The notes under the pieces were generated by a model, which worked only from the letters and a program-made list of their open reading frames with translations, searched no databases and was not told the DNA's origin. A stretch of 64,000 nucleotides of DNA from contig CAYXZZ010000001.1 of the NCBI GenBank assembly GCA_964470055.1, positions 6,291-70,290 on the forward strand, read 5' to 3'. The translations under genes and the position numbers were made by a program. Shown piece after piece: positions 7,944-23,952 of this stretch (positions within the stretch are counted from its first letter, which is position 1; each line of letters starts with the position of its first letter). This stretch comes from an uncultured Mycoplasma sp. GTDB taxonomy: Bacteria; Bacillota_I; Bacilli_A; RF39; UBA660.

Positions 7944-7962
7944 TTGAAAGGAAGGTTAGATT

Positions 7963-8244: not shown

Positions 8245-8261
8245 TTATAAGAATATAGGAG

Positions 8262-8561: not shown

Positions 8562-8565
8562 TAAA

Positions 8566-8844: not shown

Positions 8845-8858
8845 CAAGGAGAATCAAT

Positions 8859-10019: not shown

Positions 10020-10108
10020 TAAGAAAGGCGCAAGCCTCTTTTTAGTTTGAAAACAAAAGACATCTATGATATATTAAAAGAAATAATAAAGAAACGGAGA
10101 CTTAAAAG

Positions 10109-11143
10109 ATGGGATATAACGCACTAGCAACAACATTAAATAGCAAGAAAACAACCTTTGAAACTTCAATACAAAACATAAAGAACCTTTCATTTGACTC
10201 TATTTGGAGTGGGCAAGCCTATACTAAACTAACAGCAGATTTAACAACTACTATGGAAAATTTAAATACCCAAAAGGCTAACATTGAATCATTTGCCTTT
10301 GCTTTGCAACTACTACAATGTTATAAAAATAATAAAGAAAAGCAAGTTGCTATGCAAAATCAGTTAAGTAGTATTGCCAATACCGCTGAAAATGCAAATG
10401 TTATCTCATCATTAGTAGCCCAAATAAATAACTTTACCACAACCAATGAAAATATAAAACAACGAATTAATACCATTTTCCAATCAATAACACCAATAAA
10501 TTCTACGCTTGACGAAGTGGGATACAAAGTATCTGGCAATTTAGATTACATATTAGATGTCCAAGAATTATATAATTTATTTGCAACTAATCAATTGACT
10601 AAACTACCTGATAGCGGAAATAATAGCCTATATGACTATTACAGTGAAGAAGAAGTAGAACAATATCTCAACGAAATAAAGTCGACTTATTCAGGAAGAG
10701 ATGCGGCTGTTAACTGTGCCCTAGGTATCATGCAACTAGCCGCCAATGTAGGACTAAAACTTGACTATGATTGGGGTGGAGGACACACTGCTGTAACTTC
10801 TAATAATGCTATTGCTACTGGAGTAGATTGTAGTGCTTTTGCTTCATGGGCAATAAATCAAGGATCAACAGATACATTTGAAACAAGAACCACAGGTGGA
10901 TTAATAAGTATTGGAGAAAGAGTAGACTATTCCGAAGCCCAAAAAGGAGACATTCTTGTTTACAATAATGGAGAAAATGGTCACGTAGTAGTCGTTATTG
11001 AAAATAATCCAGAAACACAAACATTTATTGTTGCTGAAGCAGCAGGAAGCGATACCGGTGTCATTCTAAAAGAAAGATCATATTCATCACTTAGTTCAAG
11101 TTCATATCAAGCAAGAGACTTAAGTTCCATTTATAATAACTAA
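10109..11143 (+). CDS. Paralog of 8859..10019: WXG-type N-terminus fused to an NlpC/P60 hydrolase
   Basis: 'SIWSGQAYTKL' WXG motif, 'GVDCSAFASWAI' and 'GDILVYNNGENGHVVVVI'. Same architecture and the same 'MGY.ALAT' start as the previous gene. Confidence 0.6.
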   Translation: MGYNALATTLNSKKTTFETSIQNIKNLSFDSIWSGQAYTKLTADLTTTMENLNTQKANIESFAFALQLLQCYKNNKEKQVAMQNQLSSIANTAENANVISSLVAQINNFTTTNENIKQRINTIFQSITPINSTLDEVGYKVSGNLDYILDVQELYNLFATNQLTKLPDSGNNSLYDYYSEEEVEQYLNEIKSTYSGRDAAVNCALGIMQLAANVGLKLDYDWGGGHTAVTSNNAIATGVDCSAFASWAINQGSTDTFETRTTGGLISIGERVDYSEAQKGDILVYNNGENGHVVVVIENNPETQTFIVAEAAGSDTGVILKERSYSSLSSSSYQARDLSSIYNN

Positions 11144-11166
11144 AAAGAGAACAAGTCTCTTTTTTG
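11143..11166. terminator. Bidirectional terminator between convergent genes
   Basis: 'aaaagaga'-acaag-'tctctttt', flanked by T/A runs on both strands. Confidence 0.5.
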
Positions 11167-11171
11167 TGTCT

Positions 11172-11957
11172 TTAGAGAAAACACTTCTCAATTCTACTAA
11201 TAACGTAATACATTAAATATGAAATAACTCCAAGAATAAACACACCTGTAATAATTAAATCTATATTAAACACCTGTGAACCATACATAATAAGATATCC
11301 AATTCCTGCCTTAGATACTAATAATTCTCCCATAATAACACCAATCAAATTCATAGAAATATTTATTTTCAAAGCACTAATAATAGTTCCATAATTACTA
11401 GGAAAAACAACCTTAGTAAATATCTGCCATTTAGTTGCCTTAAAACTTCTCATCAAAGTAACAAATGCCTCATCTGTATTAATAAAACCATTATAAATAT
11501 TAATAATAGTAATAAAAATACTAATCAGTAAAGACATAAATATAATTGAATTTGTACTCGCACCAACCCAGATAATTATTAATGGACCAAGTGCCACTTT
11601 AGGTAATGAATTAAGTATTGTTAAATACGGATCAATAATTTTCGAAAGAGTAGGACTACTCCATAAAATTGTTCCAATCCATAATCCAATTCCTGTTGCC
11701 AGTAAAAAACTAATTAATATTTCATAGAGAGTAACCCATAGATGTTTAAATAAACTACCATCACTAACTAATCCAACAAATGTATTAATAACTCTACTTG
11801 GTGAAGAGAAAGTAAAAGTATTAATAACTTCTAGTCTAGCCAAAACTTCCCACCCAAGTAAAAATATCACTAATATTAAGATTCTAATTGCAACCACAAC
11901 CACTTTTTCTCTTCGTATCTTCTTAAGATAAATTTCTCTTTCGTTAGATGTGGACAT
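11172..11957 (-). CDS. ABC transporter permease (NitT/TauT, SsuC/ThiX-like)
   Basis: Six-TM permease with an EAA-like loop. It overlaps the ATPase gene as in an operon. Confidence 0.8.
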   Translation of the reverse strand: MSTSNEREIYLKKIRREKVVVVAIRILILVIFLLGWEVLARLEVINTFTFSSPSRVINTFVGLVSDGSLFKHLWVTLYEILISFLLATGIGLWIGTILWSSPTLSKIIDPYLTILNSLPKVALGPLIIIWVGASTNSIIFMSLLISIFITIINIYNGFINTDEAFVTLMRSFKATKWQIFTKVVFPSNYGTIISALKINISMNLIGVIMGELLVSKAGIGYLIMYGSQVFNIDLIITGVFILGVISYLMYYVISRIEKCFL

Positions 11958-12693
11958 CTAAATCCCTCCAAATAGCCTCATAATAAGAAGAAAAATTACT
12001 AGCACTTCTATTATTAATAGGCATTGATCTATTTTCTAACTCGATATTATAAATATTTTTAACAAGGGCTGGTCTCTTAGATAAAACAATAATCTTATCA
12101 GACATTGCTAATGCTTCAGACAAATCATGAGTCACCATAATAGCTGTTTTTCCTTCATTTTTAATTATTCGATAAATATCTTCTCCAATTGCCATTCTTG
12201 ACTGTGAATCAAGTGCTGACATAGGCTCATCAAGTAATAAAATATCAGGTTTTAAAGCCAGAGTTCTAATTAAAGCAACTCTTTGTCTCATTCCACCAGA
12301 TAAACTAGTTGGAAACATTTCTTTAAATTCATAAAGACCATAAGTTTTTAGTAAAGAAATAACATACTCATAATTTTCCTTATTTAGTTTCCCAGTCACT
12401 TCCAACCCAATTAAACAATTATCTAAAATATTTCTCCAATCAAACAAACTATCTTCCTGCAACATATATCCAATACTTACGTCTTTATGAAAAATGATTT
12501 CTCCACTAGATTTATCAGTTAATCCAGCAAGTATCGATAAAATTGTTGATTTACCGCACCCGCTAGGCCCAACAATTGAGATAAATTCATCTTCAAATAC
12601 TTCAAAACTAACTTCATCCAAGGCTTTAATCTCATCACTTTTCGTATGATAAACTTTTCCTAACTTAACAACACTAAGTAATTTATTCTTCAT
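11944..12693 (-). CDS. ABC transporter ATP-binding protein (NitT/TauT family)
   Basis: Walker A 'GPSGCGKST', signature 'LSGGMRQR', Walker B 'ILLLDEP'. Confidence 0.85.
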   Translation of the reverse strand: MKNKLLSVVKLGKVYHTKSDEIKALDEVSFEVFEDEFISIVGPSGCGKSTILSILAGLTDKSSGEIIFHKDVSIGYMLQEDSLFDWRNILDNCLIGLEVTGKLNKENYEYVISLLKTYGLYEFKEMFPTSLSGGMRQRVALIRTLALKPDILLLDEPMSALDSQSRMAIGEDIYRIIKNEGKTAIMVTHDLSEALAMSDKIIVLSKRPALVKNIYNIELENRSMPINNRSASNFSSYYEAIWRDLDVHI

Positions 12694-13103
12694 TATAAAT
12701 CAATTCATCGTAAGAAACTTTTTCATCAATTGCTCCATAATCAAGCATTATATCTTGCAAATGATTAAAAGATTCCTCACTAAAATTAGTTGTCGTAGGC
12801 CAAGCCTCAATACTTCTATATCTTGCAATAACTTTTTCCAAATCGTTTAACGAAGTATCTGGAAACTGTGGAAGAATTACTTCAGCAACCTCTCTATCAG
12901 TGTGACTATGTACATAATCAATTCCTTTTTGAATAGCCTTAGTAAAATTACTAATTAAATCTTTGTTCTCTTTAATATAACTAATTCTAGCAGAATAAGA
13001 AGTATAAGGAACAACTCCGCCTAATTCTCCAATAGAAGCAACTACATATCCATATCCATTATTTTCTATTTCTAACGCATTAGGCTCTCTTAGTGTAACA
13101 AAA
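12683..13103 (-). pseudogene. 3' (C-terminal) fragment of a disrupted NMT1/SsuA-type substrate-binding lipoprotein gene
   Basis: Reverse-strand translation gives '...REPNALEIENNGYGYVVASIGELGGVVPYTSY...DELIYNEE*', a typical SBP C-terminal half. There is no start codon, and the reading frame enters from the direct repeat at 13091-13103. Confidence 0.7.
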
Positions 13104-13132
13104 CAAAAGAACTACCAAAAGTAGTCCTAAAC

Positions 13133-14224
13133 TCATTTTGCAATTTCAAAAGGCAGTCTATTAATTTGATTAAGCTTCTCACCATTATTAATATGAACAT
13201 ACCTATCTAATGTAATCTTAACACTAGCATGTCCTAATATCTCACTCAAAGTTTTAATATCAATACCATTAAGCAGCGACCTAGTTGCAAAAGTATGTCT
13301 TAAAACATGGAAATTATACTTTTTAATATCCAAAGTATTTAAAAAATTTCTATAGAAATGATAATAAACATTTGTAGACATAAAATTTTTAGTACCAGTT
13401 AAAATAAAACAATTATCATTTCCTTTAAATTTTTCTAAATAGGGGATTAACTGATTATGAATTGGTACAATTCTCATTGAAGTCTCCGTTTTAGGTGTAT
13501 CAACAACTACCTTAGTTCTTTTATAAGATACCTCTGGGTTCTTAATTCTAACTAAAGTTTTAGAAACACAAATAACTTGATTCTCTAAATCAATGTCTTT
13601 CCATTGTAAAGCACAAAGTTCTCCAATTCTAAGACCAGTAAACAAAACTAACCAAATTGAAAATAATTTAATATCATCAGATTTTAAAGTTAATTCCTCA
13701 AGCATTGCCAGTTCATCATCCTTAATACTAACAATGTTATTCTTTACAGTTTTAGGATACTCAAATTCAATATTGATTTTCTGTGATTTGAAAAATTGTT
13801 TCAATATTATTAAAATATCCTTAATTCTTTTATTACTTAGCCCCGCTTGTTGTAAATATTTTGTAAACCTTAATATATCATTTTCATCAATATTATGTAA
13901 TCTGGTATTTCCAAAATAAGGAATAAGTCTAGAATTTATAACTGAATAATAATTATAAAATGTTGAATCTTTAATATTCAATTTGTTATTTAGCCATTTT
14001 TTTATTTCAAAAGCAAATGTCTTTTGACCTAAAACATTTTTCTTTGTACTCTTAATCTTTACATTCTCTAACGCCATATCTCTTTTATTTTTTACCTCTT
14101 TATAATTCTTTCCATAAACATATCCATACTTTAATATTTTATTATCATCACCTCTTTCACTCACATACCTAGCCTCATATCTACCATCCTTTCTTCGGTA
14201 GATATTTTCCCCTTTTCTTGACAT
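13133..14224 (-). CDS. Tyrosine-type site-specific integrase
   Basis: The N-terminus 'IYRRKDGRYEARY' is a SAM-like/arm-binding region. The C-terminal catalytic region is 'HVLRHTFATRSL...LGHASVKITLDRYVHI' (R...HxxR...Y). Confidence 0.85.
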   Translation of the reverse strand: MSRKGENIYRRKDGRYEARYVSERGDDNKILKYGYVYGKNYKEVKNKRDMALENVKIKSTKKNVLGQKTFAFEIKKWLNNKLNIKDSTFYNYYSVINSRLIPYFGNTRLHNIDENDILRFTKYLQQAGLSNKRIKDILIILKQFFKSQKINIEFEYPKTVKNNIVSIKDDELAMLEELTLKSDDIKLFSIWLVLFTGLRIGELCALQWKDIDLENQVICVSKTLVRIKNPEVSYKRTKVVVDTPKTETSMRIVPIHNQLIPYLEKFKGNDNCFILTGTKNFMSTNVYYHFYRNFLNTLDIKKYNFHVLRHTFATRSLLNGIDIKTLSEILGHASVKITLDRYVHINNGEKLNQINRLPFEIAK

Positions 14225-14427
14225 CTTATAAATCTCTCCTTTCTATAATATATTTTATGCCATATTCGAGTGTATGAAAAAAGTCGAATTATAAAAATAA
14301 AAAATATTTCAAAAAAGTCTTTTCATTTGTGAAAAAACAAGTTATAATTAAGTCATACTAACATATGAAAATAAAAGTGAATGGTACAAACCAAAAAAGG
14401 ATGGTCATATGTTAAGAAAGGTAGGAG

Positions 14428-15102
14428 GTGAAAAAAATGGAAAAAGGAAGAAGTTCAAAAGTAGTTGCAGTAGTTGCACTAGTAGTTGCAGTATTTGGAT
14501 TAACATTAGGTTTCGCTGCTTTCTCTAATACTTTAGTAATTAGTTCAAGCGCAAACGTTAAACCAGATGCATCAGCATTCAGCGTTGTATTCTCAAATGA
14601 TGCAAATTCAGTTGTTGAAGGTGGTGTTGAAGCAACTACATATGAGGATGGAGTAACAGGAGACGCTGCTACACTTAATGCTACTACAGTATCAGGAATC
14701 AAAGCAAACTTTACTAAACCTGGACAAAAAGTTACATATACTTTCTATGCACACAATACTGGATCATATATCGCTTATTTAAGATCAATCTCATATAAGA
14801 ATATCAGTGAATCAGTACAACAACATAAAGTATGTACTGTAACTACACAAGATGTTGCTGAAAACGAAGCAACAAATGATTTAGTACAAGCAGCATGTGG
14901 TGGTATTAGTATCTCAGTTGATGTTGGTACAGAAAATGCTACAGGTACTGAAACAGTTACAGGTCATGCTTTAGCGTTAAATAGTCATGAAACTGTTGTA
15001 GTAACTATTGAATATGCATCTGATGCATCACCAGCCGATGGAGAATTCGACGTAACTTTCGGAGACATCGAATTACTATACAGCTCAGTTGATGGAGAGT
15101 AA
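14428..15102 (+). CDS. TasA/CalY/camelysin-like secreted protein with a SipW-cognate signal peptide
   Basis: The signal peptide ends in 'LGFAAFSNT', matching the A-[AY]-F-[SN]-[DN] signature cleaved by SipW-type peptidases (compare TasA '..TWAAFND'). The mature part is ~195 aa and Ala/Thr/Val rich. AGGAGG RBS. Confidence 0.55.
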   Translation: MKKMEKGRSSKVVAVVALVVAVFGLTLGFAAFSNTLVISSSANVKPDASAFSVVFSNDANSVVEGGVEATTYEDGVTGDAATLNATTVSGIKANFTKPGQKVTYTFYAHNTGSYIAYLRSISYKNISESVQQHKVCTVTTQDVAENEATNDLVQAACGGISISVDVGTENATGTETVTGHALALNSHETVVVTIEYASDASPADGEFDVTFGDIELLYSSVDGE

Positions 15103-15194
15103 TCTAAAATAATTTATATTACGAGTCAGGCACAATTAGTCTGAATAGTAGTTGTGCCTCCTTCTAATATATTTCAAATTTTAGGAGGGGAAGA

Positions 15195-16322
15195 ATGAAA
15201 AGAGGGTATAAACGATTATTAATATTTGAACTTATCATGTTTTTCATACTTGTACTGAATAGTTTTTTTTGGAATATATTAGGAAGTTACTCAACAGTAA
15301 TTTTTCTTTTAGTAATAGTCGTAATATTTAAAAAGTTATTTGGTATTGAAAGAGATAAGCATAGATATACACAAGATATTATCTTTGACACTATTATATT
15401 TCTTTTAATCTTTTTCCTATTATATTATTTATTTGGTATAGTAATTGGATTTGCTAAAACAGATAATTACTATAATACGGATGGAATGTTTAGATTCGTA
15501 ATACCTGCAATTTTGACAACAATCGTTAAGGAATTTTTGCGTTATCAGGTTATTATGAAATCCGAAGGGAGTAAGTTATTAACAATATTAACTGTAATAA
15601 TGTTCATCTTTATTGATGTAACAAATCCCATTTATTATAATGGCTTTACAGACAAATATGATACATTTATATTTGTAGCATTAACTTTATTACCTTCAGT
15701 AAGTACAAATATAGTTTGTTCTTATCTAACTTATAAAGTAGGGTATAAACCAAACTTGGTATATTTATTAGTAATGAATTTATATCAATACTTATTGCCA
15801 ATTGTTCCAAACCCTAACGAATACATTGCATCGATAGTAAATTTCTTGCTACCGATCTTATTAGGGTATAAGCTAAGTGGTTTTTTCAAAATGGCAATAG
15901 ATGAAGAAGTTGAACGTGAATATAACAAACGAACTATGGCATCCTTAATTATTCCAACAGTAATTGTAATCACATTAGTCTACTTTACATCGGGATACTT
16001 TAAATACTATGCAGTAGCAATCGCTAGTGGTAGTATGGAAAAAGAAATCTCAAAAGGTGATGTAGTTATCGTTGAAAAAATTGAAGATTCATATGATCAA
16101 CTAGAAGAAGGCCAAGTAATTGCCTATAGATATCACGGAATTATAGTTGTACACAGAATAGTAAAAATCCTAAAAGAGGATGGCGAATACTTCGTATATA
16201 CAAAAGGAGATGCCAATAAGGATCCAGACAATTATGTTGTTGAGGAAGAAATGATTCTAGGAAAAGTAAACATAAAAATACCTTTCGTAGGATTACCAAC
16301 AGTATGGTTAAACGAATTATAG
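15195..16322 (+). CDS. Fusion of a polytopic membrane domain (~7 TM, ~260 aa) with a C-terminal SipW-type (S26B) signal peptidase I
   Basis: The C-terminal domain has 'IASGSMEKEISKGDVVIV', 'VVHRIVK', 'TKGDANKDPDNYV' and 'IPFVGLP', which are the SGSME/HR/KGDxNxxD blocks of ER/archaeal-type signal peptidases such as B. subtilis SipW. The N-terminal domain contains 'KEFLRYQ' (weakly CPBP-like). Confidence 0.65.
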   Translation: MKRGYKRLLIFELIMFFILVLNSFFWNILGSYSTVIFLLVIVVIFKKLFGIERDKHRYTQDIIFDTIIFLLIFFLLYYLFGIVIGFAKTDNYYNTDGMFRFVIPAILTTIVKEFLRYQVIMKSEGSKLLTILTVIMFIFIDVTNPIYYNGFTDKYDTFIFVALTLLPSVSTNIVCSYLTYKVGYKPNLVYLLVMNLYQYLLPIVPNPNEYIASIVNFLLPILLGYKLSGFFKMAIDEEVEREYNKRTMASLIIPTVIVITLVYFTSGYFKYYAVAIASGSMEKEISKGDVVIVEKIEDSYDQLEEGQVIAYRYHGIIVVHRIVKILKEDGEYFVYTKGDANKDPDNYVVEEEMILGKVNIKIPFVGLPTVWLNEL

Positions 16323-16332
16323 GAGGTCAGTC

Positions 16333-17742
16333 ATGGACGATAATAAGAAAAAGATTGAAAGAGATCTTGAATATATCGAAGAACAAGATAAGTTGAATGT
16401 CGAAGATGAATCTGAAGCTGCTATTGAAGTTGAAAATATTGATACTGATTTAAATGATCCTATAGAATATTCTGAATATGAAGACAGAATATCAAATGTA
16501 GAAAATCAAAATATTGCTGAATATGAGGAAACATATACAACAGAAATTAATGAAGACACACACATTGAACAACTAGAAGAACCAACAAGACCAATTCCAA
16601 TAATCAACGAGGAACAAGTCTTCTCAGACGATAAACCAACAGAGAAGAAAAGTTTCATTAATAATGTTAAGACAAAAGAAGATGGTCATTATGTTGATTA
16701 CAAAATAAGATTAGCAGGAAGCGTAGTCTTATTCCTAGCCTTATTCACATTAACAGTTATTTTCTTACAAGGTGCATTTAATTTATCATCATCAAGAACG
16801 ATCAACTACAATGAAAACAGTAATTTAGACTACAAAGTATATCTTAAACCGAATGATTTCTATGATACAGATTATTTAGGAAAAAATAAAGCCTATATTG
16901 CTAACCTAATTGATAACATCTTAATCGACTTTAGATATAACTATAACATTGAACAATTATCAAATGTAAAATTCAGTTATAGTATAGTTGCTAAACTTAC
17001 GATTAATGATGGAGCATCAGGCAATAACTACTTTGAAAAAGAGTATGTTTTACTAAATAATAAAACAGCATCAATAGAGAATTCAACTAATTATAGTTTA
17101 TATGAACAAGTAAAAATTGATTATGCATATTATAATACATTAGCAAATAACTTTAAACAACAATACGGAATTGATACAGAAAGTAACTTAACCGTATACT
17201 TACGAGTTAACAAGCAAAATGATATTGAAAATGCTTTAAACTCAGTTGATAATAGTACAATGTTTGTAAAAATACCATTATCAGAAAAATCAGTTAAAAT
17301 TGAGTTAAATTATCAAGACATTAACAATTCTAACTATATTATTGCAACAAATGATAGCATGGTAGATAATATTATTTTCGGAGTTTTAGCATTAGTATCA
17401 ATCCTAATTGCAATCGTCGTTGCAATTAAAATAATCCGTCTATTAAATATGCTAAGAACTAAAAAATCAATTTACGATAAGTATGTTGAAAAAATTTTAA
17501 ATGAATATGATAGATTAATTGTTGAAAACGGTACAGGTCCAGACCTTGTTAAAAACAATATTATCAAAATATCTAGATTTGAAGAATTACTAGACGTAAG
17601 AGACAATTTAAAATTACCAATTATGTACTATGTAATTGCTAAACATACAAAATGTTGTTTCTATATTAAACATAATAGAGATTTATACATGATGACAATC
17701 AAAGCAGTAGATCTTGAAGAATCAAATAACGAAAAGAAATAA
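16333..17742 (+). CDS. Hypothetical bitopic membrane protein with an acidic N-terminal region
   Basis: ~120 aa E/D-rich N-terminus, TM1 (~aa 137-160), a ~190-aa extracytoplasmic domain, TM2 (~aa 350-372) and a ~95-aa C-terminal tail. Translationally coupled to the peptidase gene. Confidence 0.5.
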   Translation: MDDNKKKIERDLEYIEEQDKLNVEDESEAAIEVENIDTDLNDPIEYSEYEDRISNVENQNIAEYEETYTTEINEDTHIEQLEEPTRPIPIINEEQVFSDDKPTEKKSFINNVKTKEDGHYVDYKIRLAGSVVLFLALFTLTVIFLQGAFNLSSSRTINYNENSNLDYKVYLKPNDFYDTDYLGKNKAYIANLIDNILIDFRYNYNIEQLSNVKFSYSIVAKLTINDGASGNNYFEKEYVLLNNKTASIENSTNYSLYEQVKIDYAYYNTLANNFKQQYGIDTESNLTVYLRVNKQNDIENALNSVDNSTMFVKIPLSEKSVKIELNYQDINNSNYIIATNDSMVDNIIFGVLALVSILIAIVVAIKIIRLLNMLRTKKSIYDKYVEKILNEYDRLIVENGTGPDLVKNNIIKISRFEELLDVRDNLKLPIMYYVIAKHTKCCFYIKHNRDLYMMTIKAVDLEESNNEKK

Positions 17743-17754
17743 AAGAAAAATTAA

Positions 17755-17787
17755 ATCATATCCTTAATAAAGGATGTGATTTTTTTA
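17755..17787 (+). terminator. Rho-independent terminator after the 16333..17742 gene
   Basis: 'atcatatcct'-taataa-'aggatgtgat' followed by TTTTTT. Confidence 0.55.
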
Positions 17788-17924
17788 TGTATGAAAATCT
17801 AGAAAAAATGTATTATGAAGTAGCCATCATTCTTAATGAAGAATTATATAAAGAAAATACTATTACTCTAAGTCAGTACAAGCAAGCAGAAGAAAAGTTA
17901 ACGGAAGAGCTAAATAAAAAATGA
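17787..17924 (+). CDS. Small ORF (45 aa) overlapping the serine recombinase start (ATGA), a possible recombination accessory factor
   Basis: Encodes 'MYENLEKMYYEVAIILNEELYKENTITLSQYKQAEEKLTEELNKK'. Its stop overlaps the recombinase ATG. Below the ORF-track threshold and speculative. Confidence 0.2.
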   Translation: MYENLEKMYYEVAIILNEELYKENTITLSQYKQAEEKLTEELNKK

Positions 17925-19327
17925 ATCTCCTTGAAGTAAGACAACAACTAATTTTAGGAGTACCTTTAACTAAACTAAACTTACGAGTAACAGATTATTC
18001 AAGAGTTTCAACCGATCATAAAACTCAACTTTCTTCATTGAAAAATCAAATCGACCATTTTGACAAAATGATTAATGATAATGAAAACTGGACCTACATC
18101 AAAGGCTATGTCGATGAGGGCATTACCGGAACTTCCGACATCAAAAGAGAAAACTTTATGCGAATGATTGAAGATGCCAAAAACAACAAGTTTGATTTAA
18201 TCATTACTAAGGAAATATCTCGCTTCTCTAGAAATACCTTAGACAGCATCAAATATACTCGCGAACTTTTATCTTATGGAGTTGCAGTATTATTCGTAAA
18301 TGACAATATTAATACAGCCCTTCCTGATAGTGAATTAAGGCTAACTATTATGGCTAGTCTTGCTCAAGATGAAATAAGAAGACTATCCGAACGAGTAAAA
18401 TTTGGTATGAATGAATCAATCAATAGAGGCAATATTTTAGGTCATAATAAACTATATGGTTATAAGAAAGATAAAATCACTAATAAACTTGTAATCATTC
18501 CAAAGGAAGCAAAAATAGTAAAAAGACTTTTTAATATGTATGTAATAAACAACAAATCTTTAAATGAAATAGCTAAAGTTTTCAATCAAGAAAAAATTCC
18601 CACTAACAGAAATTGCTTATGGAGCGCAACCACACTATCTAGAATGATTAAAAACATTAAATATAAAGGCTATTATTGTGGAAAAAAAACAGAAGTAATA
18701 GATTACATTACTAAAAAAGTAAAATATATTCCTGAAAGTGATTGGATAATATATAAAGATCCTAAAATACCGCCAATCGTCAGCGAAAGTCTTTGGGATA
18801 AAGCAAATACACGTCTAAAAAGTAAAAAAACAAAAAAACGTCAAAGTCAAAATAAATATTTATATACTTCCAAATTAATATGTAAAACTCACAATAAACC
18901 GTTCTATCGTCGAAAACAAAATAATATAACCTGGTTTTGTTCTGAATATTTAAATAAAGGAAAAGCATATTGTGATACTCCTAATCTAAAAGAAAACGAT
19001 CTTAATCAAGTACTTAAAGAAATATTTAAAAAAATAAATCTTGAACCTATCAAAAAAATTCTTCTAGATATTTATAAAAAATTAAATACTCAAAAAATAA
19101 ATCAAAACTTCTATCAAAAAATAGAAGAAAAGGTAACTATACCAAATATCTTTCCAATCTTAGTAAATAAACTAATCTCAAAAATTATAATTTCAAAAGA
19201 TAAAATCATCCTCTTAGATATCTATCTCAATTATAATATTCATCTAGTCCCCAATCAAATTATTACCATTTCCAGAAATAATTCAAAAGAGTTAATCAAG
19301 TTTCAAATAATTACTCATACAAATTAA
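17921..19327 (+). CDS. Large serine recombinase (resolvase/invertase N-terminal domain, recombinase domain and zinc ribbon)
   Basis: 'YSRVSTDHKTQ' carries the catalytic Ser in a resolvase fold. 'LIITKEISRFSRN' is also present. The C-terminus has Cys-rich 'CKTHNKPF...FCSEYLNKGKAYCD'. Confidence 0.85.
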   Translation: MNLLEVRQQLILGVPLTKLNLRVTDYSRVSTDHKTQLSSLKNQIDHFDKMINDNENWTYIKGYVDEGITGTSDIKRENFMRMIEDAKNNKFDLIITKEISRFSRNTLDSIKYTRELLSYGVAVLFVNDNINTALPDSELRLTIMASLAQDEIRRLSERVKFGMNESINRGNILGHNKLYGYKKDKITNKLVIIPKEAKIVKRLFNMYVINNKSLNEIAKVFNQEKIPTNRNCLWSATTLSRMIKNIKYKGYYCGKKTEVIDYITKKVKYIPESDWIIYKDPKIPPIVSESLWDKANTRLKSKKTKKRQSQNKYLYTSKLICKTHNKPFYRRKQNNITWFCSEYLNKGKAYCDTPNLKENDLNQVLKEIFKKINLEPIKKILLDIYKKLNTQKINQNFYQKIEEKVTIPNIFPILVNKLISKIIISKDKIILLDIYLNYNIHLVPNQIITISRNNSKELIKFQIITHTN

Positions 19328-19455
19328 ATAACACAAAATTATACATCCGCAGATACAACTGCTCATACTAGTTAACTATAAGATGGATAAAACCATCTTT
19401 TATTGTGTTCTTCAATATGATAAAATTAAAATAAGTGAAGGGAAGTAAATAGTAC

Positions 19456-20193
19456 ATGTTAAAAGAGTTTATTCTTAATGAACATCCAAAGTTTTTATTC
19501 AAACAATTTGGGCTAATTCATAACATTTTTATTTTAATTGTCATAATAGGAATGGTAATTATCTATCTAAACAGAAATAAGATTGCTCAAATAACACAAG
19601 AAAAATCAAAAAAAATTTTAAAAATAGGGGCAGTCATTTTATTAGTAAATATGCTCGTTTTTACAATTGGATTTTTATATTACGGTTGTTTTGACTATAC
19701 AAAACATTTACCTTTCCATTTATGCTTTATTGCCAACTACATGTTTATGTATGGAATTCTATTTGAAAAGGAAGAGATTTTAAAATACACGATTTTTCTC
19801 TGTTTTATTGGACCTATTCCAGCCATACTTTGGCCAGATATGGTTTCAACAATTGACAATATGGAGTGGTGGCAATATGTAATATCACATCATGTGTTTA
19901 TAATGTTAAGTTTCTTTTCATATTATGCTCTAGGCTATAAAGTAAAGTTAAAAAATTATCTTAAAGTATTCATTCTTACTAATTTCCTTATGCTAATAAT
20001 GTATCCTTTCAATTTAATTTTTAAAACTAATTATATATTTTCAACACAAATACCGGATAATGTTATGGTTTTATATCCTTGGTTAAAATATTTTCCACCC
20101 ATGTTAACCTTAGAGGTAGTAGGTTTATTAATTTCCGGTGTCATTTATTATTTCATAATCAAAAGAAGAAACAAAGAACTAGAAATTGTCTAG
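19456..20193 (+). CDS. Integral membrane protein, YwaF/TIGR02206-like
   Basis: 6-7 TM with an 'LPFHLCF' motif reminiscent of the TIGR02206 family. Confidence 0.4.
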   Translation: MLKEFILNEHPKFLFKQFGLIHNIFILIVIIGMVIIYLNRNKIAQITQEKSKKILKIGAVILLVNMLVFTIGFLYYGCFDYTKHLPFHLCFIANYMFMYGILFEKEEILKYTIFLCFIGPIPAILWPDMVSTIDNMEWWQYVISHHVFIMLSFFSYYALGYKVKLKNYLKVFILTNFLMLIMYPFNLIFKTNYIFSTQIPDNVMVLYPWLKYFPPMLTLEVVGLLISGVIYYFIIKRRNKELEIV

Positions 20194-20285
20194 TTCTCTT
20201 ATTTTTTTGTCAAATTATCGAAAAACGATAAAAATATATTGAAATTTAATATTAATGTGTTATTATATAACCAAGGAGGTATATT

Positions 20286-20753
20286 ATGAAAATATTTGGA
20301 AATAAAGGAATGGGAAATATACTAAAAATATTATTACAAGTAAGTATGTTAATAATAGGTCTAATTTTAATACTATTATATTGGGTAACAAAATGGTGTA
20401 ATTTGAACTTTGATTGGTTCATCATTATGATTTACCCTTGCGGTATTTGTTTCTTAGCCCTAATTTATCAATTTATAGGATTATTTAATACTTTAAAATT
20501 AAACAATCCCTTCTGTAATGAAAATGTCACAAGAATGAAAAATGGAATGTATTCAAGTTTTATCATTTCTTTCTTTATTACAATTGCTTTATTACTTACA
20601 ATCTTTATCTATAATTATTATTCTCTTCAATTCCAAGTAGCCTTGTTTTGTATGGCCGTTTTATTCTTTGGAGTGGGAATTGCACTTTATATTTTATCAG
20701 AATTATTTAAAGAGGCTACAAACTATAAAGAAGAAAATGAACTAACTATATAA
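20286..20753 (+). CDS. DUF2975-like small membrane protein
   Basis: Four-TM 155-aa protein immediately upstream of a YozG-like HTH gene, which is the known pairing for this family. Confidence 0.45.
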   Translation: MKIFGNKGMGNILKILLQVSMLIIGLILILLYWVTKWCNLNFDWFIIMIYPCGICFLALIYQFIGLFNTLKLNNPFCNENVTRMKNGMYSSFIISFFITIALLLTIFIYNYYSLQFQVALFCMAVLFFGVGIALYILSELFKEATNYKEENELTI

Positions 20754-20766
20754 AGGAGGAAAAACT

Positions 20767-20988
20767 ATGTCAATAATTGTTAATCTAGATGTCATGATGG
20801 CCAAGAAAAAAATCTCCTCACAAGAGTTGGCAGATAAAATCGGTATAACTCAGGCAAATCTATCTATTTTAAAAACAAACAAAGGTAAAGCAATTCGCTT
20901 TACAACTCTAGAAAAAATCTGTGAAGTATTAGACTGTAAACCAGGAGATATTCTTGATTATCAAAAGGAAAGTGATACAAATGAGTAA
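20767..20988 (+). CDS. XRE-family HTH transcriptional regulator (YozG-like)
   Basis: 'ISSQELADKIGITQANLSILKTNKGKAIRFTTLEKICEVLDCKPGDIL' is a Cro/C1 HTH. 73 aa. Confidence 0.8.
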   Translation: MSIIVNLDVMMAKKKISSQELADKIGITQANLSILKTNKGKAIRFTTLEKICEVLDCKPGDILDYQKESDTNE

Positions 20989-22411
20989 TCTTTTATTATT
21001 AATTTTTATTCTCACAATATGGCATTCAATCTTGTTTTATGGTAAAAATTTAGGTCTATCAGTAATTCTTTTTATCCTTCCCTTATTACTATTTCTATAT
21101 AATACGTTAAAAGACAAAATAAAAAATAGAAAAGGTCTACTATTAATAATTCCTATAGTTCTTTTATCATTAACTTATCTATTATTTGATAATACTTTCT
21201 TTAAAGTGATAAATATCCCAATCATCACTATACTATTTATCTTATTATATATTTTTACTATTAAACCAACATTTAATCTAAGTAATCTAGTAGAAAGTAT
21301 AGTTACTTTATTATTTGAACCGTTCAACTACATTTCAAATATCTATCATTTAGTAATAGAAAACATCAAACAAAAAATCAAAATGTCTAATCAGACCAAA
21401 AAAATTATAAAATCAATACTAATAATTTTACCAATAATTCTGCTTATATTAGTATTACTCTCAACTGCAGATCAAATGTTTAACAGTATATTTAAAAAGT
21501 TATTTACTAGTTTAGAAGAACTATCAATCCCATATTTACTAAAAGAACTTCTAATGCGTTTAATTCCTATTATCATATTATTTTTCTACCTAGGCGCAAC
21601 CATTAATTTTATTCTATATAATTATTCTAAGACAAAATATGAAGAGAAAACCACTCAAAGAAAAGTTGATAGCCTTACTATAAAATTATTACTAACCACC
21701 CTAAACATAATTTACATAATCTTTGATATTATTCAAATAAGGTCATTACTTCTTCATCATGTTTCAATGGATATAAGTTATGCAGAATATGCAAGACAAG
21801 GATTCTTCCAACTAATGTTTGTCTCACTTATAAATATTATTGTCATTCTAATTTCTAAAAAGAGCGAAAACAAAAAAGATAAAAAGACAACTACTTACAT
21901 TAAAGTTATGAACATATTAATGATATTTCTAACATTTATCATTATAATATCTGCGTTTATTAGGATGTATATGTATGAGTGCGAATTTGGTTATACCTTA
22001 CTAAGATTACTAGTTTATATTACTTTGGCTACAGAAATAATTCTTCTTATTCCAACAATAATCTACATTACAAATTCCAAATTTAATATTGTAAAATCAT
22101 ATATGATAATTTTAATAAGCGTCTATACCATAATTAATTTTATAAATGTTGACTACATAATAGCCTACAAAAATATAAATAGATACTACAATAAAAAAGA
22201 ATTAGACATTGTCTATTTAGAAAACAATAGTGCAGATAATATTCCACTATTAATTGATTTATACAATAAAACAACAGATCAAGGTCTAAAAGAAGAACTT
22301 AAAGATTATCTAACTTCTATATCTGTAAAACCAAATAGTTTTCAAGAATATAACATTTCAAAAGTAAGGGCGACCAACTTAATAAAGAATATAGATAATT
22401 TCAATAAGTAA
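20981..22411 (+). CDS. Polytopic membrane protein, hypothetical
   Basis: ~12 TM. The likely true start is the ATG at 20981, overlapping the HTH stop (ATGAGTAA). The ORF track gives 20954. Confidence 0.5.
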   Translation: MSNLLLLIFILTIWHSILFYGKNLGLSVILFILPLLLFLYNTLKDKIKNRKGLLLIIPIVLLSLTYLLFDNTFFKVINIPIITILFILLYIFTIKPTFNLSNLVESIVTLLFEPFNYISNIYHLVIENIKQKIKMSNQTKKIIKSILIILPIILLILVLLSTADQMFNSIFKKLFTSLEELSIPYLLKELLMRLIPIIILFFYLGATINFILYNYSKTKYEEKTTQRKVDSLTIKLLLTTLNIIYIIFDIIQIRSLLLHHVSMDISYAEYARQGFFQLMFVSLINIIVILISKKSENKKDKKTTTYIKVMNILMIFLTFIIIISAFIRMYMYECEFGYTLLRLLVYITLATEIILLIPTIIYITNSKFNIVKSYMIILISVYTIINFINVDYIIAYKNINRYYNKKELDIVYLENNSADNIPLLIDLYNKTTDQGLKEELKDYLTSISVKPNSFQEYNISKVRATNLIKNIDNFNK

Positions 22412-22524
22412 ACACAAAAATATATCGACAAAGAAAAACTCTTTGTCTTTTGTTCTTACTCAAGAAAATCTTGTTTTATCTATAAATTTATGTTATAATG
22501 CGTCGTGCTAGGAAAGGGATTATT

Positions 22525-23322
22525 ATGATTAATTATCGCCAAAATAAAAAAAGATATAAACCAAACGAATTAGGGAGTCTATATGTGGACGAATCGAAAT
22601 TAAATCCACATGAGCAACCGGTTATCTACATTGGTGGTCAAATGGAACACCGTTGCCATATCTTAGAACAAACAGGACTAACAGGAGATCAAGGACACAA
22701 TATGTTTACGGGCTCTTGGTTTTATGATTATCCAATTTTTTCAAAGAATAAAGGTAGTTACAATGCTACAAACTTCACCAATAACCTTTTAGAGTCTTTA
22801 CAAGCAGCAAATCTTCATGACGTTATTCTTATTACTGAAAGTTATGGAGGAACAATTGCCTCGCTCGCAACAAAATCAGATTTAATTTCAAAAGCAGTTG
22901 CTATTCATCCATCTATTTTAGGAACATCCCTTGCTAATCCTTATTATTTAGAAGATTTCAAGCAGTATTTTAATAAACGTCAACTCTTAATTTTAAAGGC
23001 CTTAAAAGTTGCTATTAATCCAGAGTATGGTTTTGAACAAGATAACTTCAACGGAATTAATCTAAGAAATGTCGATTTTGATAAACTATTAGTAGTCGGA
23101 AGTTATATTAATCAGGAAACAGAAACAAATCCCATATTACTTGAAACAAGTGATATGATTCAAAAAGTAACTTCAAATAGAAATGATGGAGTAGTTGTTT
23201 TTGAACCAAGAGAGTTTGAACGATTAGGTATTCTATATCTCCAGGAGGACGAACATAATAATCACTTAGCGGCAGGTACCAAGGAACATATTGCGAAAGT
23301 ATACCAAAAAACATTAAAGTAA
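22525..23322 (+). CDS. Alpha/beta-hydrolase-fold protein (lipase/esterase-like), hypothetical
   Basis: 'ILITESYGGTIA' is a nucleophile-elbow-like motif. The start is ambiguous (22498 or 22525). Confidence 0.4.
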   Translation: MINYRQNKKRYKPNELGSLYVDESKLNPHEQPVIYIGGQMEHRCHILEQTGLTGDQGHNMFTGSWFYDYPIFSKNKGSYNATNFTNNLLESLQAANLHDVILITESYGGTIASLATKSDLISKAVAIHPSILGTSLANPYYLEDFKQYFNKRQLLILKALKVAINPEYGFEQDNFNGINLRNVDFDKLLVVGSYINQETETNPILLETSDMIQKVTSNRNDGVVVFEPREFERLGILYLQEDEHNNHLAAGTKEHIAKVYQKTLK

Positions 23323-23952
23323 GGATGTACACCCGTATATTCTTTTTGTTACCTTATCATCAAATAGTGAAACAAAATCTCCATTTCCTCCAATAAAAGA
23401 ACCACTCATTGCTGAAAATGCTACTGATGTATCTAACGTCACTTCATTATCTGAATCAATTCCATTTTGCTTAAGAACATATTTTAAAGTCATTTCCGGC
23501 ATACCATACGCTCTCCCAGCAATAATTGTTTTTCCTTTTAAATCATCTAATGTAAAATTATCAATTTTCTCTCTAGACACCAAGAAAGAACCATCTTTTT
23601 GTGTTAATTGCGCAAAAGTTTTCAAATAATCTTTTTCTCCACCATTATAAACATAGATTGTTGCTTCACTTCCAGAAAAACCAATTTCTGCATCACCTGA
23701 CAATACAGCCGCAGTAACTTTATCTGCACCATTTGCCAATATGAGTTCAACATCTAATCCATATTCTTCAAAGTAACCTTTCTCTAAAGCCACGTATTGT
23801 GGAGCATAAAAGATTGTATGTGCAACCTCCGCAACAGTAATTTTCTCTAACTCTGTTTGTTCTTTGCTACTGCTAGCATCAAATAAAACAGAACATGCAA
23901 GTATCAACAGTAATACTGCAAATAAAACATAAATAACTAATTTCTTTCTCAT
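23314..23952 (-). pseudogene. 5' (N-terminal) fragment of the disrupted NMT1/SsuA-type substrate-binding lipoprotein gene
   Basis: A lipoprotein signal 'LLLILAC' and SBP N-terminal half are followed by '...GGNGDFVSLF'. The ORF then runs into element DNA ('DDKVTKRIYGCTSLL*'). Confidence 0.7.

Follow-up and report, generated by a model that had tools for sequence, protein, structure and literature searches.

A three-gene operon on a serine-recombinase island of an uncultured gut bacterium, most likely encoding a TasA/AbpX-type extracellular protein fibre

Three co-directional open reading frames on the forward strand, carried by a genomic island in an uncultured gut bacterium, most likely build a protein fibre outside the cell, of the TasA/AbpX type. 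They lie at 14437-15102 (P1), 15195-16322 (P2) and 16333-17742 (P3) of the window, the 64,000-nucleotide stretch of DNA that was analysed, and by analogy have the layout already known from donor-strand fibres of the TasA superfamily, represented by archaeal Tafi and AbpX; judged by sequence, AbpX is the nearest characterised relative of the operon. The preferred reading, given a probability of roughly 0.68, is that of a minimal, horizontally carried secretion and assembly kit for a TasA-superfamily fibre, in which P2 contributes a CPBP-like scaffold or gate and P3 an accessory subunit. Gene content and order, catalytic residues, modelled folds, conservation patterns, island boundaries and empty sites were all computed here. 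The original prediction had suggested looking for the same module elsewhere, and the order of subunit, fused peptidase and DUF5305 protein recurs in all the related loci inspected, with identity in the P2 N-terminal domain as low as 28%; further large proteins in those loci share the cleavage motif, as GFS|AFQ/AFS and VYA|AL (the bar marking the cleavage site). P1 evolves quickly (dN/dS 0.51) and P2 is constrained (0.15), as expected of an exposed subunit and its enzyme.

P1 (221 aa, 14437..15102, forward strand) is a secreted beta-sandwich protein and a putative AbpX/TasA-related fibre subunit, likelier to start at ATG 14437, which is preceded by AGGAGGTG, than at the GTG at 14428 chosen originally. 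A signal peptide with an AAFSNT cleavage-region motif had been proposed, and a single N-terminal hydrophobic helix followed by GFA-AFSNT is indeed present; the signal peptide (residues 1-27, nt 14437-14517) ends in GFA|AFSNTLVISSSANV, with cleavage predicted at A27|A28. Residues G25, F26, A27, F29 and S30, and with them the motif GFA|AFS, are invariant in 48 homologues. The corresponding TasA context, TWA|AFND against GFA|AFSN in P1, is similar and likewise has Phe at P2'. The 16 residues after the cleavage site alternate between invariant and variable in a beta-strand register; this putative donor strand, AFSNTLVISSSANVKP (residues 28-43, nt 14518-14565), is the lowest-entropy stretch of the protein and is unstructured in the AF2 model (pLDDT 60-75). 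It is followed by the beta-sandwich core (residues 44-221), containing the two invariant cysteines, Cys133 and Cys154, of a mature protein with a pI of 4.2 and 12.9% Asp+Glu.

By hhalign, the P1 family aligns with AbpX over 159 collinear columns (E 0.004, probability 8%), the PGxxxxxxFxxxNxG and AAC motifs among them, and with TasA over 23 columns (E 0.08), suggesting that P1 is nearer to AbpX. When the experimentally determined donor strand of AbpX (QWSETLSLSATI) is set in register with the putative one of P1 (AFSNTLVISSSA), the pairs W2/F2, L6/L6, L8/I8, A10/S10 and I12/A12 result. None of the 48 homologues has an acidic residue at putative donor-strand position 4, where Asn or Ser is found instead; AbpX, by contrast, has a Ca2+-coordinating Glu/Asp there, and TasA is also acidic at this position. 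TIGR04088, the model for the SipW-cognate signal that had been put forward as a check, matched no member of this set, nor did the TasA/camelysin models, and a Foldseek search of P1 against the PDB returned nothing significant, with the TasA fibre 8aur_A at rank 10 (E 0.058).

The C-terminal 125 residues of P2 (375 aa) form a genuine signal peptidase of the Sec11/SipW type (S26B), consisting of an anchor helix (residues 248-265) and an extracytoplasmic catalytic domain (residues 266-375), together at 15936..16322 on the forward strand. Residues 248-372 match TIGR02228, the archaeal/ER-type signal peptidase I model, with 82.8 bits (cutoff 51.85) and align with human SEC11A/C (E about 2e-12); the SipW equivalog model scores 63 bits against a cutoff of 190. 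All four peptidase blocks previously read from this region were located, namely SGSME (278-282), HRIV (320-323), KGDANKDPD (337-345) and IPFVGL (362-367). The catalytic Ser and His are both present and invariant: Ser280 (nt 16032-16034), His320 (16152-16154), Asp339 (16209-16211) and Asp345 (16227-16229) align with the SEC11 catalytic residues and are at least 90% conserved across 63 sequences of 27-49% identity. P2 has no C-terminal transmembrane (TM) helix.

The extra membrane domain of P2 (residues 1-245, 15195..15929, forward strand) is, as originally stated, without counterpart in SipW, but comprises about 245 residues and eight predicted helices, nine with the peptidase anchor, rather than some 260 residues and seven TM segments. 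A single AF2 model (pLDDT 77 overall) suggests a catalytically degenerate CPBP (CAAX-protease-like) fold resembling Rce1 and SpdC; no similarity to Pfam CPBP was detected at the sequence level. The CPBP motifs have decayed to K112-E113-F-L-R116 and F137-I-F-I-D141, leaving none of the three catalytic motifs intact; an EE pair is missing and the membrane helices are devoid of His, but helix 4 retains a conserved Glu and a conserved Arg across the 63 diverse sequences. The description of the fusion as unusual holds only in a relative sense, since this architecture is the norm in a family numbering 687 or more clusters (50% identity), and polytopic signal peptidases, together with DUF5305 'accessory' proteins, are noted in bacterial AbpX loci by a January 2026 preprint (bioRxiv 10.64898/2026.01.04.697558).

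P3 (469 aa, 16333..17742, forward strand) is a DUF5305 protein (PF17231, 48.2 bits, cutoff 29, residues 235-452) and a putative accessory subunit of the peptidase, a role already proposed for such proteins (PMC11821415, PMC12337348, bioRxiv 10.64898/2026.01.04.697558). It had been described as bitopic, but hydropathy and charge profiles indicate two TM segments: an acidic cytoplasmic N-terminus (1-125) leads to TM1 (127-149), an extracytoplasmic region (150-346), TM2 (347-369) and a cytoplasmic C-terminal domain (370-469). The poly-acidic N-terminus is present as claimed (Asp/Glu at 39 of the first 125 residues, pI 4.1) but not conserved, being mostly missing in homologues of 343-371 aa. Homologues of P3 always adjoin those of P2. 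Within the operon, the proposed translational coupling of P3 fits a GGAGG ribosome-binding site overlapping the P2 stop codon, with the P3 ATG 10 nt after the stop, and the proposed terminator was found as a 13 bp intrinsic-terminator-like hairpin with a T-run after the P3 stop (17753-17782, forward strand; -15.1 kcal/mol, z = -5.2). A further hairpin lies in the P1-P2 gap (15103..15185, forward strand; RNA fold -24.9 kcal/mol, z = -3.4 versus shuffles), and may be an attenuator or stabiliser setting the subunit-to-peptidase ratio.

From these features we infer how P1 may be cleaved and polymerised, and what the CPBP-like domain and P3 may do. P1 would be exported via Sec and its signal peptide cut between Ala27 and Ala28 by the peptidase domain of P2, a dedicated enzyme being needed because Phe at P2' is poorly handled by housekeeping LepB-type peptidases (PMC10269814). 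Cleavage would release the N-terminal segment AFSNTLVISSSANV, the inward-facing even positions of which (F2, L6, I8, S10, A12 and V14) would slot, as a donor strand, into the following subunit's open beta-sandwich, such that P1 polymerises head to tail without a chaperone. The eight-helix domain of P2 may act in cis as SpbR does in trans on Staphylococcus aureus SpsB, or SpdC on SagB, forming a membrane scaffold or gate against the peptidase anchor helix that controls the choice of signal peptides admitted to the active site, or the moment of their entry. P3 would be a two-pass accessory subunit, forming with P2 a small prokaryotic 'signal peptidase complex'.

Other functions for these proteins were also weighed. 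P1 might be a monomeric secreted or surface beta-sandwich, such as an adhesin, carbohydrate-binding or envelope protein, with the peptidase serving only export and maturation and no fibre being formed. This is considered unlikely: no part of P1 is more conserved than the strictly alternating, invariant segment following the cleavage site, yet this segment is unpaired in the monomer model, a pattern for which a monomer offers no reason; the same segment is collinear with AbpX, and the gene context is identical to that of proven fibre systems. Very little credence can be given to P1 being a metalloprotease of the camelysin/M73 type, or a matrix protein of the amyloid kind once proposed for TasA, ideas of the original prediction whose sole support was the analogy of the P1 signal-peptide motif to those of TasA, CalY and camelysin. 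Neither Peptidase_M73 nor related HMMs matched any of the 48 homologues, a metal-binding motif is absent and the invariant residues of the family (Gly, Phe, Cys, Tyr and Asp-Gly) are structural, while donor-strand exchange now accounts for the TasA fibres too (PMC9674648). Donor-strand complementation is a better description than an amyloid-like fibre. As for P2, the modelled likeness of its N-terminal domain to the fold of Rce1/CPBP proteases, and the conservation of the helix-4 Glu and Arg, could point to an active intramembrane protease using the non-canonical residues Glu113, Arg116 and Asp141, making P2 a bifunctional enzyme that, for example, degrades the released signal peptide or makes a second cut in the substrate. 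Such activity would be surprising given the loss of the catalytic motifs, and experiments show the degenerate relatives SpdC, LnsB and SpbR to be scaffolds or regulators without proteolytic activity, the equivalent H, E and R mutations in SpbR being without effect.

The reading of the operon as a fibre kit draws on comparison with characterised systems. AbpX, described from Pyrodictium abyssi along with archaeal and bacterial homologues (bioRxiv 10.64898/2026.01.04.697558), is, like P1, small and acidic with two Cys, and has a signal peptide followed by an amphipathic donor strand whose position 2 is aromatic, with the same hydrophobic register, the likeness being at profile level only. Its loci also encode an adjacent, dedicated TIGR02228-type peptidase with many extra TM helices, ten as described in comparison with the nine of P2, and an adjacent DUF5305 protein with two TM segments; they differ in having minor subunit, tip, anchor and regulator genes, of which this island has none, encoding no second subunit. 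The Bacillus subtilis tapA-sipW-tasA operon similarly pairs a fibre substrate with a dedicated S26B peptidase, but SipW is about 190 aa long without a CPBP-like domain, and the DUF5305 partner here stands in place of a TapA homologue. In haloarchaeal Tafi, the TafA/TafE pilins are encoded with the peptidase TafD and the DUF5305 protein TafG (PMC11821415, PMC12337348); these donor-strand pilins are exported via Tat, whereas the signal peptide of P1 is of the Sec type, TafD has four TM segments and an extra C-terminal domain as opposed to the N-terminal eight-helix domain of P2, and the loci comprise five to seven genes, including tip proteins and regulators, rather than three.

The fusion itself has parallels in SpbR-SpsB and SpdC-SagB, in which a degenerate CAAX-protease-like polytopic protein is paired with a single-pass extracytoplasmic enzyme through a TM helix. 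SpbR binds SpsB, a type I signal peptidase, via a transmembrane helix and the ectodomain (PMC12260438), and its degenerate motif 2 (FIYLD) shares the FxxxD form of that in P2 (FIFID). However, SpbR and SpsB are two proteins where P2 is one polypeptide, SpsB is a Ser/Lys S26A enzyme and P2 a Ser/His S26B enzyme, and SpbR inhibits a housekeeping peptidase whereas the P2 domain appears an obligatory part of a substrate-dedicated one. The eukaryotic signal peptidase complex (SEC11A/C with SPC22/23, SPC25 and SPC12; PDB 7p2p, 7p2q) offers the catalytic subunit most similar in sequence to that of P2, with the same Ser/His/Asp, likewise working with membrane accessory subunits; those accessory folds are unrelated to the ones here, of which one is fused to the catalytic subunit, and that complex is general rather than substrate-dedicated.

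The island spans 10,272 bp (13088..23359), as delimited by synteny breaks against one related contig (L001), an empty site in another (L010) and contigs with an intact target gene (L020-L025). It interrupts an NMT1-type ABC substrate-binding-protein gene on the reverse strand, the C-terminal part lying at 12686..13087 and the N-terminal part at 23360..23952. The crossover dinucleotide is TC on the forward strand (13086-87 and 23360-61), corresponding to GA in gene orientation, within the conserved codon stretch GDFVSLF|EP (the bar here marking the insertion); rejoining the halves at GA restores a 331-aa ORF 83% identical to intact homologues. The likely integrase is a 468-aa large serine recombinase with Resolvase, Recombinase and Zn-ribbon domains (17921..19327, forward strand; Pfam; phrog_95 integrase, E 4e-98), the start of which is overlapped by an upstream 45-aa ORF (17787-17924), and which would have integrated the 10.3-kb element at GA. 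The reconstructed attP, with inverted-repeat arms matching at 14/20 around GA, is typical of serine recombinases. A Tyr integrase gene occupies the left end (13133-14224, reverse strand), and the remaining cargo comprises a TMEM164-like acyltransferase, a DUF2975 and HTH pair, a DUF4153 protein and an unassigned 274-aa ORF. Large-serine-recombinase elements that interrupt genes include, in B. subtilis, skin (within sigK) and SPbeta (within spsM). These too insert within coding sequences leaving both halves intact, with an attP in which imperfect inverted repeats flank a 2-bp crossover; the present island differs in lacking phage and sporulation genes and any detected sign of regulated excision, and in having its recombinase mid-island with a second, tyrosine-type integrase at the left end.

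Whether the island still moves bears on how the operon is inherited. It may be a fixed remnant, its link to mobility only historical and the operon vertically inherited cargo; this is possible but on balance doubtful. All four same-species contigs carry the island, and it occupies the same site in a lineage of only about 75% nucleotide identity, where its genes match the flanking ones in divergence (dS about 1) and the recombinase, at 310 aa, is truncated; related modules of 59-61% identity also occur in chromosomal contexts without any recombinase. Neither an excised form nor a same-species empty site was found when looked for. Against this, the window encodes a full-length recombinase in which the three domains are complete, empty sites exist in genomes that are equally related, and a contig of 99.9% identity, obtained from a different sample, breaks away from the window precisely at the right crossover dinucleotide. 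Furthermore, both target-gene halves are intact with a dN/dS of 0.14, showing no relaxation of selection and arguing against long-term inactivation; the idea that the module spreads at the cost of a transporter gene stands as regards the interruption, while the cost itself is uncertain. Present-day mobility is the favoured inference, and mobile carriage as originally predicted is borne out by the boundaries, the recombinase-type att site and the empty sites in relatives.

The original concept of a self-contained set on a mobile element, made up of a substrate, its own SipW-type peptidase and a partner in the membrane, is thereby supported by co-occurrence, catalytic residues and island boundaries. 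A kit of this kind is already known; what is new is this fusion of a signal peptidase to a CAAX-protease-like membrane domain, as modelled, the carriage of the module on a large-serine-recombinase island, and a putative subunit whose presumed donor strand lacks the acidic residue that AbpX and TasA have.

The three genes of the operon, encoding the putative fibre subunit P1 (221 aa), the fused peptidase P2 (375 aa) and the DUF5305 protein P3 (469 aa), are co-directional on the forward strand. P1 begins at 14428 (GTG) or, more likely, at 14437 (ATG), a codon seven bases past AGGAGGTG, and ends at 15102; P2 extends over 15195-16322 and P3 over 16333-17742. As originally predicted, P3 is coupled to P2, its ATG lying 10 nt beyond a GGAGG motif that spans the stop codon of P2, and the operon is closed by a putative terminator, a 13 bp hairpin with a T-run at 17753-17782 (-15.1 kcal/mol, z = -5.2). 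The 92 nt spacer between P1 and P2 is itself a long hairpin (-24.9 kcal/mol, z = -3.4); such a structure, 3' of the gene for a putative major subunit, would be expected if the subunit were needed in excess.

P2 contains a signal peptidase domain of the archaeal and ER type, as residues from about 248 to 372 match TIGR02228 with 82.8 bits against a cutoff of 51.85. Peptidase_S26 is matched by all 63 diverse members of the P2 family, and the domain on its own matches SipA, SEC11, LepB and LexA. The best solved relatives, found with a profile of 39 homologues, are human SEC11C (E 1.9e-12) and SEC11A (E 3.6e-12), in which the SGSME, VHR and GDxN motifs are aligned, as are Ser280, His320, Asp339 and Asp345. 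These four residues and Arg321 are invariant in close homologues and at least 90% conserved in 63 sequences with 27-49% identity to P2. The catalytic Ser lies in SGSME, HR supplies a catalytic His in place of a Lys, and the conserved Asp residues are in GDxN...D, the configuration of the S26B peptidases. The Ser and His, the absence of which had been named as grounds for abandoning the peptidase assignment, are both kept, and that assignment therefore stands. What had been described as a SipW-type peptidase is thus of the S26B type, and not an orthologue of Bacillus SipW, as it scores only 63.4 bits against the SipW equivalog NF046067, below the cutoff of 190 bits. SipW proper is roughly 190 aa in length with two helices, whereas P2 has 375 aa, nine predicted helices and no C-terminal helix.

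The presence of an extra membrane domain at the N-terminus of P2 was borne out, although not its seven transmembrane segments: an AlphaFold2 model built with a 39-sequence alignment (mean pLDDT 77, membrane domain 80-90) has eight helices (residues 3-236), a short charged loop, a ninth helix (248-265) and then the beta-rich peptidase domain. By the positive-inside rule the N-terminus and the 237-247 loop are cytoplasmic, with the peptidase domain outside. In this model the N-terminal domain is predicted to have the eight-helix CPBP fold, that of the CAAX-protease-like membrane proteins Rce1 and Abi; the Rce1-like Pfam family PF02517 was matched by none of the 63 diverse family members at E values up to 1. 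The catalytic motifs of CPBP proteases are EExxxR, FxxxH and HxxxD/N (PMC12260438). In P2, helix 4 has K112-E113-F-L-R116 and helix 5 has F137-I-F-I-D141, there is no His in the membrane helices, and the only conserved charged residues of these motifs are E113 (at least 90%) and R116 (invariant). An active CPBP protease is judged unlikely because all three motifs are degenerate. The pattern of decay is that of the non-proteolytic CPBP relatives SpdC, LnsB and SpbR. The last of these, a degenerate CAAX-protease-like protein with the motifs HELYMR, FIYLD and QIVAI, binds SpsB, the type I signal peptidase of S. aureus, via the transmembrane helix and ectodomain of SpsB, and inhibits cleavage (PMC12260438). 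Given a degenerate CPBP-like domain and the precedent of SpbR and SpsB, P2 resembles, by analogy, two such partners joined covalently.

The fusion is far from unique to this genome. For P2, 1,661 relatives were detected, and the 120 top-ranking ones are nearly all 373-378 aa long and from metagenome-assembled genomes labelled 'Bacilli bacterium'. With only the N-terminal domain as query, an exhaustive search returned 687 clusters at 50% identity (E 1e-3 or better), one named example being from a Clostridiales genome; most of these clusters are 360-390 aa in length, and hence fused. Stand-alone N-terminal domains, with matches of 230-272 aa, were considered as a split architecture and rejected, the inspected ones being truncated or disrupted genes. 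As most relatives are fused and the inspected short ones broken, being fused is the rule in this sizeable family, which has no name. In two other metagenomes the P2 homologue is broken right at the boundary between the membrane and peptidase domains, by an in-frame stop after ...SGYF at L027 (2106-3236) and by a frameshift after ...SGFF at L028 (1452-2568); these may be pseudogenes or sequencing errors. A scan of a genome collection with the single P2 sequence returned one locus, and collections of plasmids and phages contained no full-length fusion, the relatives found there being of the peptidase domain only. For AbpX loci, bacterial as well as archaeal, the peptidases are described as having ten transmembrane helices, with a DUF5305 protein encoded alongside and the fold not identified (bioRxiv 10.64898/2026.01.04.697558); on that description they are likely to belong to the same class as P2.

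P3 matches DUF5305 (PF17231) with 48.2 bits against a cutoff of 29, and a PDB sequence search with it found nothing. It had been thought bitopic, yet has two hydrophobic segments, 127-149 and 347-369, with positive-inside flanks, giving a predicted order of transmembrane segment, ectodomain, transmembrane segment and cytoplasmic domain. Its acidic N-terminus is present as proposed, but is not a feature of the family, as it differs greatly in length among homologues. Haloarchaeal Tafi and AbpX loci likewise pair a signal peptidase with DUF5305, and the existence of peptidase-DUF5305 fusions has led to the proposal that DUF5305 is an accessory subunit of the peptidase (PMC11821415, PMC12337348, bioRxiv 10.64898/2026.01.04.697558).

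The expectation that the same three-gene module would be found elsewhere was confirmed, with subunit, fused peptidase and DUF5305 genes in the same order in the loci examined for gene order. These are L001, a related lineage, and L002, with 73% identity in P2; L003-L005 and L011-L014, with 59-64%; and L015 and L016, with 28% identity in the N-terminal domain. L009 (59-64% P2 identity) has the subunit and fused peptidase, together with another stretch that can be aligned to the region of P3. In several loci there is in addition a large second protein with a cleavage motif like that of P1 (L003 10260-12020, L013 9254-11032, L011 8142-10055 and L015 from 8286): proteins of 586-637 aa have signal peptides ending IGFS↓AFQ or VGFS↓AFS, and a beta-helix-repeat protein of 4,391 aa has VVYA↓ALCS. 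The simplest reading of their sequences is that they are candidate substrates of the fused peptidase, as tip proteins or adhesins. The island in the window has no such additional gene, and a scan of all 64 kb for the cleavage motif found only P1 and one internal chance match, at around 8611, lacking a signal peptide.

P1 had been likened to the TasA, CalY and camelysin proteins on the basis of its signal peptide, with an exported fibre, an amyloid-like matrix protein and an M73-type metalloprotease offered as possible functions. Membership of the TasA/camelysin families by HMM was rejected: neither P1 nor 48 aligned homologues matched TIGR04088, the SipW-cognate signal peptide model, TasA or camelysin (Peptidase_M73) at E values up to 10, a search in which matches that are both weak and very short may be lost to the HMMER filters. 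More generally, P1 and these homologues matched no family in Pfam or NCBIfam. The metalloprotease and amyloid readings were both discarded, neither having any supporting feature. A fibre subunit is suggested by other features, among them the pattern of conservation. P1 has 249 relatives of about 215 aa, and among the 48 aligned homologues G25-F26-A27 and F29-S30 are invariant and A28 nearly so; Cys133, Cys154 and a D-G...G-D pair near the C-terminus are likewise invariant. The stretch following the inferred cleavage site is the lowest-entropy part of the protein: counted from Ala28, positions 2, 6, 8, 10, 12 and 14 (F, L, I, S, A and V) are invariant or nearly so and the odd ones vary, an alternation that, in sequence terms, is the signature of a putative beta-strand with one buried face. 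In the AlphaFold2 monomer (pLDDT 85.6) the beta-sandwich core exceeds 90 and the conserved stretch is coil at 60-75; in this model, a conserved strand without a partner has the look of a donor strand, through which subunits would polymerise. Phe occupies position 2 after the cleavage site in 48 of 48 homologues, and sites with Phe at P2' are poorly cut by LepB (PMC10269814), because of which P1 would need a dedicated peptidase.

Among known fibre subunits the nearest to P1 is probably AbpX. The sequence ...GLTYA↓QWSETLSLSATIS of AbpX, from the supplement of the preprint (bioRxiv 10.64898/2026.01.04.697558), and ...GLTLGFA↓AFSNTLVISSSAN of P1 are in the same register (W2-I12 of AbpX), and alignment of the P1 family to AbpX with hhalign extends over 159 collinear columns, taking in the PG...F...N.G and AAC motifs, with E 0.0041 and 24% identity at a probability of only 8%. 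The corresponding comparison with TasA gave a 23-column PG...N.G motif only (E 0.08). A PDB search with the P1 family profile found nothing, and nothing in the PDB was significantly similar to the P1 model by Foldseek, the TasA fibre being at rank 10 with E 0.058. Mature P1 has a pI of 4.2 and 12.9% acidic residues, close to the values reported for AbpX homologues. A difference lies at position 4 of the putative donor strand, which is acidic in AbpX and TasA and coordinates Ca2+ in AbpX, whereas the P1 family has Asn (36 homologues), Ser (10), Thr (1) or Gln (1) there, with Asp or Glu in 0 of 48; strand insertion bridged by calcium as in AbpX is therefore not expected. Compared with L001, P1 is evolving fast (dN/dS 0.51), and P2 (0.15) and P3 (0.23) are constrained.

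The best-supported reading is of a donor-strand fibre kit in minimal form, belonging to the TasA superfamily with AbpX as its nearest relative and borne by a serine-recombinase island. This island interrupts an NMT1-type ABC substrate-binding-protein gene on the reverse strand, the C-terminal part of which lies at 12686-13087 and the N-terminal part at 23360-23952. In the syntenic, empty-site relative L010 this gene is whole, encoding 328 aa with 82% identity between the same sortase/thioester-adhesin and ABC genes; there are hundreds of whole homologues of 327-333 aa and up to 83% identity, and six metagenome contigs align over the break point. When metagenomes were scanned for a reconstituted attB, nothing from this species came up, the whole genes that were found all belonging to species further away (66-73% nucleotide identity). 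A GA dinucleotide is common to attB and both junctions and is placed as the crossover, which therefore delimits the island as 13088-23359, or 10,272 bp. The junction sequences are attB TCACTATTTGAGCCTAATGCG and attP ACACTAAGAGATGATAAGGTAAC, the rebuilt attP being TTTGTTTTGTTACACTAAGA-GA-TGATAAGGTAACAAAAAGAA, with arms matching at 14/20 positions as inverted repeats. Imperfect inverted repeats around a 2 bp crossover are the usual layout for large serine recombinases, and one such enzyme, with Resolvase, Recombinase and Zn-ribbon domains (phrog_95, E 4e-98), is encoded at 17921-19327. Recombinase domains, attP layout and an empty attB in relatives together identify the element as a large-serine-recombinase island. 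A 45-aa ORF just upstream (17787-17924, forward strand), overlapping the recombinase start (ATGA) and gene-called in the compared contigs L006-L008, matches no family; a recombination directionality factor is one possibility for it.

Just inside the left end is a tyrosine integrase of 363 aa (13133-14224, reverse strand) that is absent from L001; the segment 13103-14431 as a whole is missing from the homologous island of that lineage, and may be a separate later insertion. Besides the integrases, no phage-like genes were found in the island. Its other cargo (19456-22411, forward strand) comprises a membrane acyltransferase resembling TMEM164, a DUF2975 membrane protein next to an HTH regulator of the Cro/C1 type, and a polytopic protein with DUF4153; there is also a 274-aa ORF of no assigned family. 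The 19456-22411 cargo is unrelated to the fibre operon, and L001 has a different, 289-aa gene instead.

Several further features lie outside the island. Just beyond the split gene, 24813-28271 (forward strand) encodes a thioester-domain/SpaA-fold adhesin (520 aa), a sortase and a protein of 416 aa. Beside the island there is thus a second surface-fibre system, this one dependent on sortase, and its arrangement is kept in L001 and L010. At 6444-11143 (forward strand) a cell-wall-hydrolase-like protein, several proteins of approximately 95 aa, including one WXG100-like, and two paralogues of 386 and 344 aa look like a type VII secretion toxin set; in Pfam the 344-aa paralogue has an NlpC/P60-CHAP-like C-terminal domain and the 386-aa paralogue no match, and the block 6244-11207 is wholly absent from L001. 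A T-box leader (Rfam RF00230, 105.8 bits) is found at 3886-4148 (forward strand), upstream of an ORF at 4198-5049.

The mobile carriage of the module had been supposed to come at the cost of a transporter gene. As regards decay there is no sign of such a cost: when the gene halves are joined in silico at the GA, a perfect ORF of 331 aa results, in the window and equally in L001, which at approximately 75% nucleotide identity has a homologous, shorter island with a truncated recombinase at exactly the same position, and the dN/dS of the binding-protein gene is 0.14 between the two interrupted copies, against 0.12-0.13 relative to an intact copy. Insertion has therefore not led to decay, which could reflect either recent independent insertions or periodic restoration through reversible excision of the island. 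As the split gene is undecayed in two lineages separated by a dS of about 1, the island may be a reversible switch, excision of which might restore nutrient uptake and remove fibre production. All four same-species contigs carry the island, and neither an empty site nor a circular junction was found in this species. L006, a contig of a different sample, matches window positions 5195-23361 with 99.88% identity; precisely at the right crossover dinucleotide the two part, and L006 goes on with genes for a ParA-like ATPase and a protein with a CHAP domain (L006 18160-19735, in place of window 23361 onward). Its junction half site, CCTCTAGGAGA, is attP-like and resembles the left end of the island, which suggests either that a second element sits there in tandem or that the att site has been rearranged. 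Some related modules lie in chromosomal surroundings where no recombinase is encoded, and the module is therefore not obligatorily mobile.

As this type of system is already known, the operon does not represent a class of its own, but a variant with four distinguishing features: a subunit family lacking the Ca2+-binding residue, a nine-helix peptidase, a minimal three-gene form and mobile carriage. P2 would be a peptidase with a built-in CPBP pseudo-protease domain like SpbR or SpdC, acting with its DUF5305 partner P3, and the modelled CPBP fold would connect the operon to the recently described regulation of SpsB by SpbR. To our knowledge, the pairing of a CAAX-protease-like scaffold with a signal peptidase has so far been known only from SpbR and SpsB of S. 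aureus, and no paper linking CPBP folds to fibre-dedicated peptidases was found in the literature searched. A bolder proposal, which we consider rather improbable at present, is that P2 and P3 form an unrecognised prokaryotic signal peptidase complex, composed of a Sec11-type domain, a fused CPBP-like pseudo-protease and DUF5305, and that the island acts as a reversible switch. If this were true, the fusion would be a Rosetta stone, indicating an ancient and widespread association between signal peptidases and CAAX-protease-like scaffolds, by which fibre-dedicated peptidases are given their substrate selectivity.

The value of the locus lies in sharper hypotheses rather than in a new class, the system being known here from sequence and models, with peptidase identity, fold assignments, conservation patterns, gene context and island anatomy all computed, and with the cleavage site, polymerisation, the roles of P3 and of the fused domain, and present mobility inferred. 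Bacillus biofilms have fibres of the TasA type as their main protein scaffold, and the archaeal relatives of these fibres (AbpA, threads, Tafi and AbpX) have been solved only recently. The fused peptidase joins two literatures, on fibre-dedicated Sec11-type peptidases and on the CAAX-protease-like pseudo-enzymes that regulate membrane-bound partners, and P2 offers a compact model for how a signal peptidase gains substrate specificity. With its kit stripped down to three genes, the locus would extend the TasA-type family to uncultured Bacilli of the gut, a large group, and as the operon is carried on a recombinase island, the capacity for matrix formation or adhesion may spread horizontally in the gut.
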